Below, piece after piece: positions 12,879 through 60,525 of a DNA stretch of 64,000 bases. The DNA is taken from positions 6,037 to 70,036 of the forward strand of contig JAFGRK010000019.1 in the NCBI GenBank assembly GCA_016935175.1, written 5' to 3'. The notes under the pieces are model-generated. The model had not been told where the DNA came from. It made no database searches and worked only from the letters and a program-made list of their open reading frames with translations. The stretch's first letter is position 1. Every line of letters begins with the position of its first letter. The position numbers were made by a program, and so were the translations under genes. This DNA is from Candidatus Woesearchaeota archaeon (GTDB lineage: Archaea > Nanobdellota > Nanobdellia > Woesearchaeales > SM23-78).

Positions 12879-13093
12879 ACAAGGAGGTTAGCATTTATCA
12901 TTTAAATCTTTATCGGGTTAGTCATCAGGGGGCTAAGCTCACAAAGTGTGCGCATGTATTCCTTTAAAGGAACACTCAAAAATCTTAAAGGTTTTTGTTG
13001 CCGCCTGCTTTTGAGATCTTTTCGTGCTAAAAGGTCACACTGGACATGTTGCCGTAAGCCTTATAAACAAGTTATGTGTTTGTTCGTATTACT

Positions 13094-13945
13094 ATGATCA
13101 GCGTTAGCCTGCTCTCCAGCTATGATTATTGCCCTAGGAAGCTTTTTCTTGAGCAGGTGCTAAAGCTCATAGTCATACCCAGGGAATCTGTTGTCAAGGG
13201 CAGCATCAGGCATGAGGTGCAGGACAGAATCAGCAAGGCAGAGGAGAGTATTGTCAAGAGCATAAAGTCAGAGCAGAGCTACAAGGAGCTGTTGGAGAAG
13301 TACAAGAAGCTTCATTCTGATCTCTTGAACCAGAGCATCATCAAGAACAAGAGCAAGCTGGGTGAGATAAAGGTCTCATTGGCTGAGTTCTTCAAGGAAT
13401 CATGGCCTACAGTGCTTGAGGAGAGCAAAGACCGGGCCTTGAATGTGCATAAATTCATCCAGTCCAACAAGGTGTTTGGTGATGAACTCTGGAGAAGCCT
13501 TAGCCCTAAGATTGAGACAGAGTATTATGTTGCCTCAGAGGAGCTCCAGCTCAAGGGAGTGATTGATAGGCTAGAGGTCTATGATAACAAGTTCGTAAGG
13601 GAGGTTGTGCCTTATGAGCTTAAGACTGGCAGCGTCCCAAGGGAAGGGGTTTGGCCTGGTCATAAGGTCCAGGTAGGCGCCTATGTCATGCTCTTAGAGA
13701 AGAACAAGATGTTTGTGAGAGAGGCTTTTGTCAAGTACCTGGATATAAGCGAGGCAAGGCCTGTGATGATGAACCCTTTCCTTGAGAAGAAAGTGCTTGA
13801 GGCAAGGGATGCTGTTCTTAAGCTGTTCCAGGGAAAAGAAATACCTTGCATATGCGAGAACTCTAAGAAATGCTCTTCCTGCAGCCTGAAAGAGCAATGC
13901 TGGAATGAAAAGTTTATAAAAGAGAGATTATCCCTGCTTTCTTGA
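13094..13945 (+). CDS. Stand-alone Cas4-like PD-(D/E)xK nuclease with Cys cluster (DUF83-like)
   Basis: An N-terminal Cys (YDYCPRKLF) plus a C-terminal C-x-C..C..C..C cluster (CICENSKKCSSCSLKEQC), together with an internal D...ELK nuclease motif. ATG 13094 sits ~28 nt after the ccttataaac TATA. Confidence 0.65.
   Translation: MISVSLLSSYDYCPRKLFLEQVLKLIVIPRESVVKGSIRHEVQDRISKAEESIVKSIKSEQSYKELLEKYKKLHSDLLNQSIIKNKSKLGEIKVSLAEFFKESWPTVLEESKDRALNVHKFIQSNKVFGDELWRSLSPKIETEYYVASEELQLKGVIDRLEVYDNKFVREVVPYELKTGSVPREGVWPGHKVQVGAYVMLLEKNKMFVREAFVKYLDISEARPVMMNPFLEKKVLEARDAVLKLFQGKEIPCICENSKKCSSCSLKEQCWNEKFIKERLSLLS
13913..13922 (+). promoter_or_regulatory. TATA box for the tRNA-Val gene, embedded in the 3' end of the preceding CDS
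   Basis: TTTATAAAAG lies 30 nt upstream of tRNA position 1. Confidence 0.4.
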
Positions 13946-13951
13946 AGAATT

Positions 13952-14128
13952 GGGCCTGTGGTCTAGCGGCTACAGCAAAAGAGCAGCTCTTTTGAGCTTG
14001 CGGCTTTTGCGCCGCAAATGATCCCACCTTCACATGCATTTGAGCAAAACTCTTTTGCTGAATGCGGTGGTGGTCGCCAGTTCGAATGAGCTTTTGCCAA
14101 AAAGCTAGCGAAAGTCTGGCCAGGCCCA
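13952..14128 (+). tRNA. tRNA-Val(CAC) interrupted by three putative introns (D-loop ~21/22, anticodon loop ~37/38, T-loop ~59/60)
   Basis: The exon pieces assemble into a 73-nt cloverleaf. The acceptor stem is GGGCCTG/CAGGCCC plus A. The D-arm is GTCT-AGCGGCTA-(46 nt)-TGAT. The anticodon arm is CCACC-TTCACAT-(30 nt)-GGTGG. The variable loop is TGGTC. The T-arm is GCCAG-TTCGAAT-(28 nt)-CTGGC. Each inserted block folds into its own hairpin(s). Confidence 0.7.
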
Positions 14129-14150
14129 TTTTATTTTTAAGAGGTTTTTT

Positions 14151-14696
14151 ATGAGGGAAATCGAGGTTAAGATTCTAAACATCAACAAGAATGAAATAGA
14201 GAAAAAGCTGGCATTGCTTGGGGTAAAGAAAACCTTTGAAGGCATGCTCGAGGCTTATTATTTTGACTACCCTAACCTAAAGCTCAGAAAATCTGGTAAG
14301 ACTCTTCGCTTGAGAAAAGAGGATGGCAAGGCAGTGCTCACTTTCAAGCAGAAAGTGAATGACAAGAAATTCAAGATTAGGAATGAGCATGAAGTTGAGC
14401 TGTCTGATTTTGGCAAGGCAAAGCAAATCCTTGAGCTGCTAGGGCTGAGGGTTTTTAGTGGCATAAACAAGAAAAGGACTGCTTACACTCTGGGAGAAGT
14501 CCACCTGGAGATTGACAAGTACCTTGGCAAGTATTCTTTTGTGCCTGAGTTCCTGGAGATTGAGTCAGAAGATGAGCGCCTTATTTATAAGTACGCGGGG
14601 ATGCTCGGGTTCAAGCCAAAGGATTGCAAGCCTTGGAGTATGGTTGACATCATTAATCATTACAAGGTTAAGAAAATTAGTAATAAAATACGATAA
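14151..14696 (+). CDS. CYTH-domain protein (class IV adenylate cyclase / triphosphate tunnel metalloenzyme)
   Basis: It has the N-terminal EIEVK motif, the alternating charged beta strands LRLRK..VLTFK and the C-terminal FLEIE. Confidence 0.8.
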   Translation: MREIEVKILNINKNEIEKKLALLGVKKTFEGMLEAYYFDYPNLKLRKSGKTLRLRKEDGKAVLTFKQKVNDKKFKIRNEHEVELSDFGKAKQILELLGLRVFSGINKKRTAYTLGEVHLEIDKYLGKYSFVPEFLEIESEDERLIYKYAGMLGFKPKDCKPWSMVDIINHYKVKKISNKIR

Positions 14697-20818: not shown

Positions 20819-23197
20819 GTGAAAACGATGAATGAGCGCATAAAAAAATTAAGGCAGCAAAGCCTTGAGGCAAAGCCTCATATTGACCTTGAAAGGGCTG
20901 TGCTTATGACAGATTTCTATGAGAACCATAACAACCAAACCTTGTCTGCCCCTGTAAAAAGGGCCCTTGCCTTCAAGTATGTGCTTGACAACAAGGCAAT
21001 CTGCATAAATGAGGACGATCTGATAGTTGGAGAAAGGGGCTCTGCACCCAAAGCGACCCCAACTTATCCTGAGCTAACAACTCACACTGTGCAAGATTTT
21101 GAGATTCTTAACTCAAGGGAAAAAATACCGTTTGCAGTGAGTGAGGAAACAAAGAAAATACAATTAGAGAAGATTATTCCCTTTTGGCAAGGCCAAAGCA
21201 TGAGAGACAAGATATTCAATGAGATGGGACAGGACTGGAAAAATGCTTATGAGGCAGGCATATTCACAGAGTTCATGGAGCAGCGAGCACCAGGGCATAC
21301 TGTGCTTGACGATAAGATCTACAAGAAAGGCATGCTTGATTTCAAAGAGGATATAGCAAAGAGCCTGAGCAGACTAGATTTTGAAAAAGACCCTGATGCT
21401 TACAAGAAAAAAGAAGAGCTAAAAGCAATGGCTATAGCTGCAGATGCAGTTATTAGCTATGCAGCAAGGCATGCAGAGAAGGCAAAGGAATTGCTACAAT
21501 CAGAGCAGAAGCCCAAGAGAAGGCAAGAGCTTGAAAAGATAATAGAGACTGCCACTAATGTGCCTGCCCATGCACCGAGGGATTTCCAAGAGGCTCTCCA
21601 GTATTATTGGTTTGTGCACCTGGGTGTCATTACTGAGCTTAACACCTGGGACTCATTCAACCCTGGCAGATTAGACCAACACCTTTATCCTTTTTACAAG
21701 AAAGGATTAGAAGATGGCACCTTGACCAAGGACAATGCCAAGGAGCTGCTCCAGGCTTTCTGGGTGAAGTTCAACAACCAGCCAGCCCCTCCAAAAGTAG
21801 GGGTTACTGCTGAGGAGAGCGGCACCTACACTGACTTTTGCCTGATAAATACCGGAGGAGTAAAGGCTGATGGCAGTGATGCAGTGAACGAACTATCGTA
21901 CATGATACTCGATGTTATACAGGAGATGAGGCTGCTCCAGCCTAGCTCAATGGTGCAGATAAGCAAGAAAACCCCTCAAAACTTTCTTATGCGAGCACTG
22001 GATATTGTGAAGACAGGCTATGGCCAGCCTTCCATATTCAACACTGACGAACTAGTGCAGGAGATGCTGCGCGTAGGAAAAAAACCAGAAGATGCAAGAA
22101 ACGGCGGCTCCAGCGGCTGCGTGGAGACTGGGGCATTTGGCAAGGAAGCCTACATCCTGACTGGCTACTTTAACCTGCCTAAGATTCTTGAGATAACCCT
22201 TAACAACGGAATTGACCCTAACACTAGAAAAAAGATTGGCATTGAGACAGGCAACCCCGAGAAGTTCAAGAGCTTTGACGAGCTTTTGCAAGCCTACACT
22301 TATCAGATAAGGCATTTTACAGATATAAAGATTAAAGGAAGCAACATCATTGAGAAGCTTTTCGCAGATTACATGCCAACGCCAATGATGTCCTTGCTCA
22401 TTGATGATTGCATAGCCACTGGCAAGGATTACCATGCAGGAGGAGCCAGGTACAACACATCATATATCCAAGGGGTAGGGATTGGCAGCGCAACAGACTC
22501 ATTATCCTCAATAAAGTACAATGTATTTGATGAGGCAACCAAGACTTTGAGCATGCAAGAGATGATGAATGCCCTAAAGGCTAATTTCAGGGATAATGAG
22601 CAGGTACGGGAGCAATTCATCAACAAGACACCAAAATACGGCAATGATGATGACTATGCCGATAACATGATGCGCCAGTTGTTTGAAGCCTATTTCAGTG
22701 CAGTTGATGGCAGGCCTAACACTAGGGGAGGCAACTATCGCATCAATCTCTTGCCTACGACTGTGCATGTGTATTTCGGAAAGGTGACTGGAGCGCTTCC
22801 TGATGGCAGGAAGGCTTATGAGCCCTTGTCAGAAGGAGTGTCACCTGTGCAAGGAGCAGACAGGAAAGGCCCTACTGCGGTGCTTAAGTCAGTTGCCAAG
22901 ATGGACCATGTGCGCACAGGAGGAACCCTGCTCAACCAGAAATTCACACCTAGTATGCTGAGCGACCAGGCTGGCGTGAAAGGGCTTGCAGCCCTGGTAA
23001 GAGGTTACTTTGCCATGGACGGCCACCACATCCAGTTCAATGTGGTGGATGCAGACACCCTAAGGGATGCCAAGGCGCACCCTGAGCAGCACAGGGACTT
23101 GATAGTGAGGGTGGCTGGCTACAGTGATTATTTCTGCGACCTGGGCGAGAAGCTGCAGGACGAGATAATCAAGAGGACAGAGCACAGGGAATACTAA
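20819..23197 (+). CDS. Glycyl-radical enzyme, PFL2/glycerol-dehydratase-like family
   Basis: It has the C-terminal glycyl-radical motif LIVRVAGYSDYF and a single active-site Cys in the SSGCVETG context (GCVE type rather than the PFL CC type). Confidence 0.9.
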   Translation: MKTMNERIKKLRQQSLEAKPHIDLERAVLMTDFYENHNNQTLSAPVKRALAFKYVLDNKAICINEDDLIVGERGSAPKATPTYPELTTHTVQDFEILNSREKIPFAVSEETKKIQLEKIIPFWQGQSMRDKIFNEMGQDWKNAYEAGIFTEFMEQRAPGHTVLDDKIYKKGMLDFKEDIAKSLSRLDFEKDPDAYKKKEELKAMAIAADAVISYAARHAEKAKELLQSEQKPKRRQELEKIIETATNVPAHAPRDFQEALQYYWFVHLGVITELNTWDSFNPGRLDQHLYPFYKKGLEDGTLTKDNAKELLQAFWVKFNNQPAPPKVGVTAEESGTYTDFCLINTGGVKADGSDAVNELSYMILDVIQEMRLLQPSSMVQISKKTPQNFLMRALDIVKTGYGQPSIFNTDELVQEMLRVGKKPEDARNGGSSGCVETGAFGKEAYILTGYFNLPKILEITLNNGIDPNTRKKIGIETGNPEKFKSFDELLQAYTYQIRHFTDIKIKGSNIIEKLFADYMPTPMMSLLIDDCIATGKDYHAGGARYNTSYIQGVGIGSATDSLSSIKYNVFDEATKTLSMQEMMNALKANFRDNEQVREQFINKTPKYGNDDDYADNMMRQLFEAYFSAVDGRPNTRGGNYRINLLPTTVHVYFGKVTGALPDGRKAYEPLSEGVSPVQGADRKGPTAVLKSVAKMDHVRTGGTLLNQKFTPSMLSDQAGVKGLAALVRGYFAMDGHHIQFNVVDADTLRDAKAHPEQHRDLIVRVAGYSDYFCDLGEKLQDEIIKRTEHREY

Positions 23198-58917: not shown

Positions 58918-60288
58918 TTAGTCGTTAGAACGGGCTTGCTTTTTCTTTTTTCCCTGGCCGAAGCGTTCTGAAATGCTGGCTTTTCTCTTGGCATATTGCA
59001 GCGGGTTCTTTATCTTGGCGCAGAATTCGTCTGGCTTGCATATGGAAAGCCCTTTGTAGTAGGCGAGGTTGTTGCAATTGGGAGGAGGAAGGACTTCCTT
59101 ACCTTGCTTTGCATATCTCAACTGACCTAAGATATATTGGGGCCTTAAGGGCTCATAATTCTTCTCATTCCACTCCATAAGCCTTTGTTCTATCATATCA
59201 TAGCCCCAGCCGCAGCTGGAAAGGAAGTTGATGAGCGCAAAGCAGCTCCTCTTCCTGCCGTCCTCAAGACCCGCCAGGATAATCTTGATGCACGGGGGGA
59301 AGTGCTCTTCTCCAATGGCCTTTTCTGGCAGCGAATAGGATTTTTGCTTCGCACCCCCTTTCTCTGCTTCTTGCTCTTCCTGCCCGAAAGAGCCTGATGA
59401 TGGCCTAAAGTCAAAAGCGTTGCGCAAAAGTTTCTCAGCATCGCCACGCGCATCATTTCGCTCTAAAAATGGGTGCTCGATCTTGACATTCTCTGGCTTC
59501 GCATCATCTTTCTTGAACTTGAGAACAGAGTTAACATCTATGGGAACAGACACGAGCCATGATTTCTCATTGAATGAATAGGGCATCCTGTAAAGGTGGC
59601 GCGAGCTGATGAGAAGGGTGTCAATTTCTAGGAATGGGTCGGCATTAAGTTCAGGGATGTCGTCTCCGAACTCATTCTTCTTGTAGCGGATTATCTGCTC
59701 AGCCCTCATGCCTGTTTTTGTGATTACCTTCTGAAAATTATTTTTCTCCACTTTCATTATTGCCTTGCTCAGAGGCTCTTGTATGAGGAACTTGATGTAC
59801 TCCGCTATCCTTTTTGGCGCCTCCGGAAAAAGGTTCTTGACTGGCTGTCCATCAATGCTTTCAGGGAACGCCTCAAAAGGCACTGCTATATGGAATCCTT
59901 TATTTCCTGAGAACTTGCATGTTATTGATTTGACTCCATTATATTTCAGAGCTTTGATAGTATAATGGGCTGCTATCTTGCTGTAATCAAAGAAATGGCA
60001 GTCAATGTCCAGCACTAAGTCCCAGCCTTTTCTGAGAGAATCAAGCTCTTGCCTCCTGAGCTCAGTACTCAATTGCAGAGGAGAAACCCACAACTCCTCG
60101 GAGCAGTGTAAGCTAGTCATCTTCTGCTTTGCCAGCTCAAGTATATCATTAGGATAGGATAGAATCTCTGGGCGCTTACCGAAGAAGTCATCAAAACGAA
60201 AGGCTATCTCCTTGTCCTTGGCGTGCTTCACAATCTCCTTTTGTATGTCTTCTCTCTTGTAGAACGATAATGTCTTAGCTAGGAACAT
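58918..60288 (-). CDS. priS: DNA primase, apparent PriS catalytic domain fused to a PriL-CTD-like Fe-S module
   Basis: The AEP motifs are DLVLDIDC (DxD), SGNKGFHI (SGxxGxH) and RMPYSFN. The C-terminal ~120 aa have FPPCI plus three further Cys (RKRSC, LSSC, PPPNC / ICKPDEFC). Confidence 0.8.
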   Translation of the reverse strand: MFLAKTLSFYKREDIQKEIVKHAKDKEIAFRFDDFFGKRPEILSYPNDILELAKQKMTSLHCSEELWVSPLQLSTELRRQELDSLRKGWDLVLDIDCHFFDYSKIAAHYTIKALKYNGVKSITCKFSGNKGFHIAVPFEAFPESIDGQPVKNLFPEAPKRIAEYIKFLIQEPLSKAIMKVEKNNFQKVITKTGMRAEQIIRYKKNEFGDDIPELNADPFLEIDTLLISSRHLYRMPYSFNEKSWLVSVPIDVNSVLKFKKDDAKPENVKIEHPFLERNDARGDAEKLLRNAFDFRPSSGSFGQEEQEAEKGGAKQKSYSLPEKAIGEEHFPPCIKIILAGLEDGRKRSCFALINFLSSCGWGYDMIEQRLMEWNEKNYEPLRPQYILGQLRYAKQGKEVLPPPNCNNLAYYKGLSICKPDEFCAKIKNPLQYAKRKASISERFGQGKKKKQARSND

Positions 60289-60394: not shown

Positions 60395-60525
60395 GCGGGT
60401 GTGCCGGAGTGGTCAAACGGGCATGGTTCAGGTGGCGAGAAGGAGGAAGCTTCTGAGGTTTCCTGCGCTCGCATGAAACGCCATGTGACTCAGTGTCTGC
60501 GCAGGTTCAAACCCTGTCACCCGCA
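60395..60525 (+). tRNA. tRNA-Leu(CAG), class II, with ~47-nt intron in the anticodon loop
   Basis: The acceptor stem is GCGGGTG/CACCCGC plus A. The D-arm is CCG-GAGTGGTCAAA-CGG. The anticodon stem is CATGG/CCATG with loop TTCAGG, then the intron. There is a long variable arm (GAC-TCAGT-GTC) and a T-arm GCAGG-TTCAAAC-CCTGT. Confidence 0.75.

Follow-up and report, generated by a model that had tools for sequence, protein, structure and literature searches.

The 177-nt segment at 13952-14128 (+) of the window (the whole 64,000-nt stretch of DNA analyzed here) raises the question of whether it is a functional tRNA gene, or merely resembles one once parts of it are taken away. Unspliced, it escapes the standard tools: ARAGORN found no tRNA in the whole 64-kb window, Rfam at its gathering threshold returned a sole tRNA match in the whole window (60395-60525, not this locus), and a permissive Rfam scan of 13850-14250 gave nothing tRNA-like. 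When 104 nt are taken out as three blocks, a 73-nt RNA remains that ARAGORN calls tRNA-Val(CAC). A custom scan of the 64 kb for insert-interrupted acceptor and T-arm geometry returned credible matches only at this locus and at the tRNA-Leu at 60395. Based on the evidence below, the locus is very probably a functional tRNA-Val(CAC) gene of a member of the Woesearchaeota (DPANN), containing three protein-spliced archaeal introns.

The spliced product has the expected build. The gene starts with GGGCCTG TG GTCT AGCGGCT and ends with CTGGC CAGGCCC A, and its spliced form has a 7-bp acceptor stem (GGGCCUG/CAGGCCC), a D arm (GGUCUAGCGGCUAUGAU) of the typical archaeal valine type, the anticodon loop UUCACAC, and the T arm GCCAG-UUCGAAU-CUGGC. 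The perfect T arm and acceptor stem claimed in a preliminary description of this DNA are thus both seen in the spliced 73-mer. Reading from the sequence, we found U8, A14, G18G19, U33, A37, U54-A58, G53-C61 and A73 to be present, and removal of the inserts restores a cloverleaf with the invariant nucleotides in the window and in four orthologs, as judged by ARAGORN. The exons, all on the + strand, are distributed as follows. Exon 1 (13952-13971) covers positions 1-20a, that is, the acceptor 5' strand, U8, G9, the D-stem 5' strand and the D-loop AGCGGCU. Exon 2 (14018-14034) covers positions 21-37, with the D-stem 3' strand, the anticodon stem 5' strand, the anticodon C34 A35 C36 (14031-14033) and A37. 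Exon 3 (14065-14086) covers positions 38-59, with the anticodon stem 3' strand, the variable loop UGGUC, the T-stem 5' strand and UUCGAA, and exon 4 (14115-14128) covers positions 60-73, with U60, the T-stem 3' strand, the acceptor 3' strand and the discriminator A73. CCA is not encoded in the gene. A 71-aa minus-strand ORF (13914-14129) was rejected as a coding gene because it overlaps the tRNA and cannot persist across orthologs of differing intron content.

If the three blocks are introns, their joints should be recognizable to the archaeal splicing machinery. In archaeal bulge-helix-bulge (BHB) motifs, each strand is cut 3' of the second nucleotide of its bulge. We applied blind a rule consisting of an outer helix, a 3-nt bulge, a 4-bp helix, a 3-nt bulge and an inner helix, and found that the central helix has four of four Watson-Crick pairs at all three cut pairs that restore the cloverleaf, where a 4-bp helix in BHB register is expected by chance for about 2% of random cut-site pairs. 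Intron 1 (I1, 13972-14017, +, 46 nt) lies in the D-loop at 20a/21 and is cut at U20a|A21. Its central helix pairs GCGG (13966-13969) with CCGC (14012-14015), its bulges are CU|A and AA|A, and its inner helix consists of a C-G pair, one bulged A and then GCAAAAG/CUUUUGC; since the outer helix is weak, we classified this BHB as relaxed. Intron 2 (I2, 14035-14064, +, 30 nt) lies at the canonical 37/38 site, is cut at A37|C38, and forms a strict hBHBh' motif, with the 5-bp anticodon stem as the outer helix, UUCA/UGAA as the central helix, the bulges CA|U and UG|C, and the inner helix GCA/UGC. Intron 3 (I3, 14087-14114, +, 28 nt) lies in the T-loop at 59/60 and is cut at A59|U60, with the 5-bp T stem as the outer helix, UUCG/CGAA as the central helix and a canonical 3' bulge AG|U. 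Its inner helix AGCUUUU/AAAAGCU is displaced, putting the 5' site AA|U in an internal loop, so that this BHB is relaxed at the 5' site. The BHB motif itself has been described (PMC4090602, PMC3488258). The preliminary description had proposed folding the junctions in search of such motifs, and all three sites proved compatible, one strictly and two in relaxed form.

Thermodynamic folding gives a similar picture. The unconstrained minimum free energy (MFE) fold of the 177-nt precursor (-83.2 kcal/mol) contains the acceptor stem and the central helices of I1 and I3; the BHB fold of I3 is the MFE structure, and that of I2 is 3.9 kcal/mol less stable than a competing local hairpin. Each intron alone folds into a hairpin (z-scores of -1.7 to -2.3), in agreement with the earlier claim that every inserted block does so, and the exon-plus-intron mini-substrates reach z-scores of -3.7 to -4.2 against shuffles.

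We fetched orthologs of the locus via the downstream CYTH protein, the homologs of which are 59-75% identical to it. The ortholog contigs keep the order of a Cas4-like nuclease gene, a spacer of ~90-240 nt and the CYTH gene, and the spacer contains in each case a tRNA-Val(CAC) gene whose intron content varies. L110 and L111 lack I1, with GGCUAUGAUCC contiguous, have an unrelated I2 of 46 nt, and carry an identical 28-nt I3. L115 has an I1 of 46 nt (87% identical) and an I2 of 29 nt (70% identical), and lacks I3, with UUCGAAUCUGGC contiguous. L113 and L114 have an unrelated I1 of 96 nt at the same site, lack I2, with UUCACACGGUGG contiguous, and have, at the I3 site, an unrelated intron of 46 nt that forms a strict hBHBh' motif. 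L116 lacks I1 and I3 and has an I2 of 14 nt, and L112 has an I3 of at least 135 nt, within which its contig begins, so that I1 and I2 are not seen there. Among other sediment, soil and wetland metagenome contigs, one matches the window without differences over 14064-14137 and has the I2 of L110 in front of it; further relatives carry other I1 sequences in this position, and one has a variant I3.

These intron-less alleles allowed us to read the joints directly. The alleles without I1 (L110/L111 and L116) have GGCUAUGA across the site, those without I2 (L113/L114) read UUCACAC-GGUGG, and those without I3 (L115 and L116) read UUCGAAU-CUGGC; in every case the empty site matches the joint predicted from the BHB motif exactly. 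Therefore, BHB-compatible junctions at all three sites together with orthologs lacking each intron at exact joints bear out the main claim of the preliminary description, namely, a tRNA-Val(CAC) gene with three introns, two of them non-canonical. The block sizes of 46, 30 and 28 nt and the sites at about 21/22, 37/38 and 59/60 given there are also correct within a one-base sliding ambiguity. However, the exact I2 cut had been placed one base too far 3', as position 38 is fixed as C, not U, by the I2-less sequence of L113/L114.

Conservation of the exons bears on whether the gene is still in use. It might be a decaying pseudogene disabled by three insertions, for instance small mobile or slippage-derived hairpins, with GUG decoded via another gene. 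Such a reading would account for the failure of ARAGORN and Rfam to detect the locus, for the imperfect BHBs of I1 and I3, and for the lack of RNA reads on the locus in the three metatranscriptomes of the source study, none of which gave a contig there. However, the spliced orthologs are all 73-nt tRNA-Val(CAC), and their exons are identical to those of the window at 73/73 (L110), 70/73 (L115), 67/73 (L113) and 64/73 (L116) positions, whereas nucleotide identity over the adjacent CYTH gene reaches only 61-75%. Exon 1 is identical in L110 and L115 and has a single change, C16 to U, in L113 and L116. Moreover, the 4-bp central helix is preserved in all nine intron/locus combinations, and in every ortholog insert it stands exactly where a BHB requires it relative to the joints. 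Stem changes are compensatory as well: the T-stem pair 52-62 is A-U in the window and G-C in L113, and pair 27-43 covaries from C-G via U·G to U-A. Within the splice motifs, the inner-helix pair G13975-C14010 of I1 becomes A-U in L115, and in L113 the change of exon C16 to U is matched by a change of G to A in its own unrelated I1, turning GCGG/CCGC into GUGG/CCAC. Such paired changes speak for the tRNA and for the splice motifs alike. As the promoter is also kept, the window copy retains its T-run (see below), and such upkeep in at least five lineages would be unexpected of a pseudogene, we consider decay very unlikely and retain the reading as a functional gene.

Since the sequence was assembled from a metagenome, and strains with differing intron sets coexist in sediments, one might also ask whether the three-intron arrangement is an artefact, that is, a chimeric contig joining the tRNA-Val genes of different strains. 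The best run (X1), read to 56%, gave no contig over the locus; however, it contains 96% of the sampled 31-mers of 13700-14400, and 31-mers span every exon-intron joint as the inner exons are only 17-22 nt long. Furthermore, I1 and I2 occur together in the independent assembly L115, and I2 and I3 in L110/L111, so that independent assemblies have each intron and each pair except I1 with I3, which disfavors a chimeric contig; the I1 and I3 pair is seen in L113, with different sequences. A chimera is thus hardly credible, and we regard the three introns as belonging to a single genuine gene.

Putative signals for expression are found on both sides of this gene. A TATA-like box TTTATAAA (13913-13920, +) with a purine-rich AAAAG before it lies within the final codons of the Cas4-like CDS (13076-13945), its first nucleotide being 39 nt upstream of tRNA position 1. 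It lies at the same distance in L110, L115 and L116, and reads TTTTTAAA in L113. The earlier claim that the gene has its own TATA box inside the upstream CDS is supported by this conservation, from which we infer a promoter, although coding constraint could also contribute to it. Directly 3' of A73, the T-run TTTTATTTTT (14129-14138, +) is likely an archaeal transcription stop. In the window, the tRNA and the CYTH gene are separated by a 22-nt spacer (14129-14150) with T-runs. In three orthologs (L113:2495-2503, L115:969-977 and L116:997-1004), the CYTH start codon lies 4-5 nt past the tRNA 3' end and the T-run is absent; this short gap implies that the tRNA and the CYTH mRNA would be co-transcribed there.

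Taken together, these features suggest the following pathway. The promoter would drive synthesis of a precursor of ~190 nt containing the three introns. At each intron, the 5' exon is predicted in silico to pair with the 3' end of the intron, forming the 4-bp helix between two bulges. EndA, the tRNA-splicing endonuclease, would then cut both bulges 3' of their second nucleotide, an RtcB-type ligase would join the exons, and the resulting 73-nt tRNA would receive its CCA. That the introns are spliced, in which order they would leave and that EndA would act on them are proposals based on what is established about archaeal tRNA splicing.

I1 appears to have a competing structure. The segment GCCGC at 14011-14015 can pair either with the exon, as in the BHB, or within the intron, as in a local hairpin, and the two alternatives are mutually exclusive. 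Each is backed by one compensatory change in L115, the pair 14000/14015 favoring the intron-internal hairpin that competes with the BHB. Accordingly, I1 may switch between two folds. The two pairings arise because the exon sequence directly before the 5' splice site (CTAGCGGCT, 13966-13970) recurs in slightly altered form within I1 (CTTGCGGCT, 13998-14017).

Conserved introns might additionally serve a second role in an otherwise functional gene, either as a guide or regulatory RNA, or by protecting the tRNA gene from integrating elements, a protection hypothesis that has been described (PMC4090602). This would explain why I1 (87%) and I3 (100%) are more conserved than the flanking coding DNA. 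The duplicated 5' part of the tRNA in the relative L117, with a 27-nt direct repeat as integration would leave, also speaks for it: in L117:1-130, 19 nt of the tRNA-Val start and 8 nt of the leader are present twice, ~100 nt apart, as the repeat AACTTAATGGGCCTGTGGTCTAGTGGC. On the other hand, sister lineages have lost or exchanged the introns freely, and the conserved intron segments belong for the most part to the BHB and the inner helices. A C/D-box guide-RNA role was dropped because we read the C-box (RUGAUGA) in none of the introns, and an Rfam search of the ortholog loci revealed no known RNA family inside the long introns. A second role is therefore unlikely, though less so than decay of the gene, and excision as ordinary tRNA introns is the reading that we follow below.

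Which enzyme would cut these introns? The window contains one noted EndA gene, endA (202-951, +), which lies 13 kb upstream of the tRNA-Val locus and encodes 249 aa with Pfam domains PF02778 and PF01974. The protein is composed of a variable, K/E-rich N-terminal tail of ~75 aa and a single alpha unit made up of an N-terminal and a catalytic domain. Its best solved relative is the Nanoarchaeum equitans alpha subunit (3IEY_A, E-value 6.5e-40), followed by the Methanopyrus kandleri and Methanocaldococcus jannaschii enzymes. Close homologs comprise thousands of proteins labelled Woesearchaeota tRNA-intron lyase, with that of RBG_13_36_6 at 76% identity, which also assigns the window to this lineage. 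In our alignment (A1), the catalytic residues Y185, H195 and K226 are invariant. This EndA is presumed to cut the three introns.

The specificity of this enzyme is less readily accounted for. [quoted passage not shown] In alignment A1, the window EndA has no Aeropyrum CSL insert (a 9-aa gap), as is also the case for M. jannaschii alpha4, and no N. equitans loop insert (a 6-aa gap), its length here being that of M. jannaschii alpha4; a basic-residue loop insert of the kind that marks broad-specificity enzymes is thus lacking. The protein does carry a C-terminal Trp, which is typical of broad-specificity EndA enzymes. In the same alignment, other Woesearchaeota EndAs, including that of RBG_13_36_6, have the same tail, the same loop-less build and a C-terminal Trp. 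Cleavage of relaxed BHBs has been ascribed to the loop inserts (PMC5829648, PMC3488258), yet I1 and I3 have relaxed BHBs and the sole EndA seen here is a single loop-less alpha unit. That such an enzyme removes relaxed-BHB introns from the D- and T-loops in Woesearchaeota is a doubtful idea; specificity may then reside in the lineage-wide Lys/Glu-rich tail and C-terminal Trp, or in an unrecognised partner subunit. If true, loop-less cleavage would add a fourth way of attaining relaxed specificity, so far undescribed, to L1/CSL, L2/ASL and the L3/N. equitans loop. With one strict and two relaxed BHBs, the locus offers a set of substrates for probing the loop-less Woesearchaeota EndA.

To place the intron differences in a phylogenetic context, we built a maximum-likelihood tree of the CYTH proteins. 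The window groups with L110, L112 and P0004 (support 99/98), this clade joins L113 and L115 (100/99), and L116 falls outside. As the more distant L115 has a homolog of the window's I1 and the closer L110 has no I1, precise loss of this intron in L110 is the simplest reading; the same reasoning suggests that I3 was lost in L115 and I2 in L113. In other lineages, the unrelated introns suggest wholesale replacement of sequence at fixed sites. Horizontal exchange of tRNA gene segments may be an alternative source of this pattern. The tRNA-Val introns are evolutionarily labile, with precise loss or unrelated same-site replacement within a well-supported clade.

The three introns of the window copy also resemble one another. 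Counting both strands, the 64 kb contain three copies of the composite signature TGAGC-N(0-7)-TTTTGC (~1.3 expected), one per intron, and the 3' 20 nt of I1 align with the core of I2 at 70% identity. This shared signature and alignment are suggestive of, although they do not prove, a common origin of the three introns, and intron transposition has been described in Thermoproteales (PMC4033280, PMC4090602). Only the composite TGAGC...TTTTGC is specific to the introns; the idea of a dispersed repeat based on the hairpin word GCTCTTTTGMKC was discarded, since this word occurs no more often in the window than expected (3 matches versus 3.4). A metagenome scan with the pattern CCACCTTCACA-N10-40-GGTGGTGGTC returned 29 loci, none of them a tRNA; we rejected these as chance matches, as they lie in unrelated, mostly protein-coding and mostly high-GC DNA. 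A different hairpin module, with an outer stem, ACAUU, an inner stem and a UUCG loop, is found in L113:2325-2375 and L112:75-115, occupying intron 1 in one of these tRNA-Val orthologs and intron 3 in the other. The two copies (AAG-GAGGAC...GUCCUCC-GAAC and AAG-UGGG...CCCAC-GAAAC) differ by compensatory changes, which suggests that the module moves between intron positions.

How new is such a gene? The preliminary description had called a tri-intronic tRNA notable here, such genes being known mainly from Thermoproteales-type lineages. The three-intron gene is real; however, 20/21 and 59/60 are listed archaeal non-canonical intron sites (PMC4090602), three introns are the recorded maximum for an archaeal tRNA, and multi-intron tRNAs have been recorded in Crenarchaeota, N. 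equitans, M. kandleri, Korarchaeum and ARMAN (PMC4033280). Kaneta et al. (2018) have surveyed disrupted and multi-intron tRNAs in DPANN, including one Woesearchaeota genome, and noted that DPANN tRNA sets are incompletely predicted (PMC5829648). We found no published account of a specific three-intron Woesearchaeota tRNA. The locus thus adds a good example to a phenomenon already known and does not reveal a new mechanism. It is most similar to the genes of Thermofilum and Pyrobaculum in the Thermoproteales (Sugahara et al. 2008; PMC4033280, PMC4090602), which have up to three BHB introns, at sites including 20/21 and 59/60, with introns related to one another in sequence and quickly gained and lost. 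However, the host here is a mesophilic-sediment DPANN archaeon rather than a crenarchaeote, and the EndA seen is not an (alpha-beta)2 enzyme with the Crenarchaea-specific loop. The DPANN survey (PMC5829648) concerns the same superphylum and reports multiple and non-canonical introns, which it links to EndA variants, but it ties DPANN disruption to the L3 insert, which the Woesearchaeota EndAs analyzed here lack when compared with M. jannaschii alpha4. A eukaryotic nuclear tRNA gene with introns distributed over three arms and BHB-dependent splicing is also similar, but it is processed by a heteromeric Sen complex and has no evolutionary connection to this locus.

The practical consequence concerns annotation. 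Of the orthologs, ARAGORN and Rfam detected only the one with a single intron, and missed all those with two or three. As standard finders miss the gene, tRNA-Val(CAC) would seem to be missing from Woesearchaeota genomes, leading to wrong inferences about their completeness or codon usage. The syntenic series moreover amounts to a small natural archive of how introns at three sites in a single gene were precisely lost or replaced, and should be useful for understanding how archaeal tRNA introns are gained and lost.

Several other features of the window were recorded. The tRNA match at 60395-60525 (+) is a class II tRNA-Leu(CAG) with one canonical 47-nt intron (60433-60479), the central BHB helix of which is UUCA/UGAA; Rfam scores it at 42 bits and ARAGORN misses it. 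At 20819-23197 (+) lies a gene for a pyruvate formate-lyase-like glycyl-radical enzyme, which is 64-72% identical to proteins from many bacterial phyla (Aminicenantes, Bacillota and Ignavibacteriales among them) and from a few DPANN and Asgard MAGs, and has probably spread horizontally. Finally, a 456-aa protein encoded at 58918-60288 (-) combines a weak primase-polymerase match with a primase large-subunit domain, and may be a fused PriS-PriL primase.
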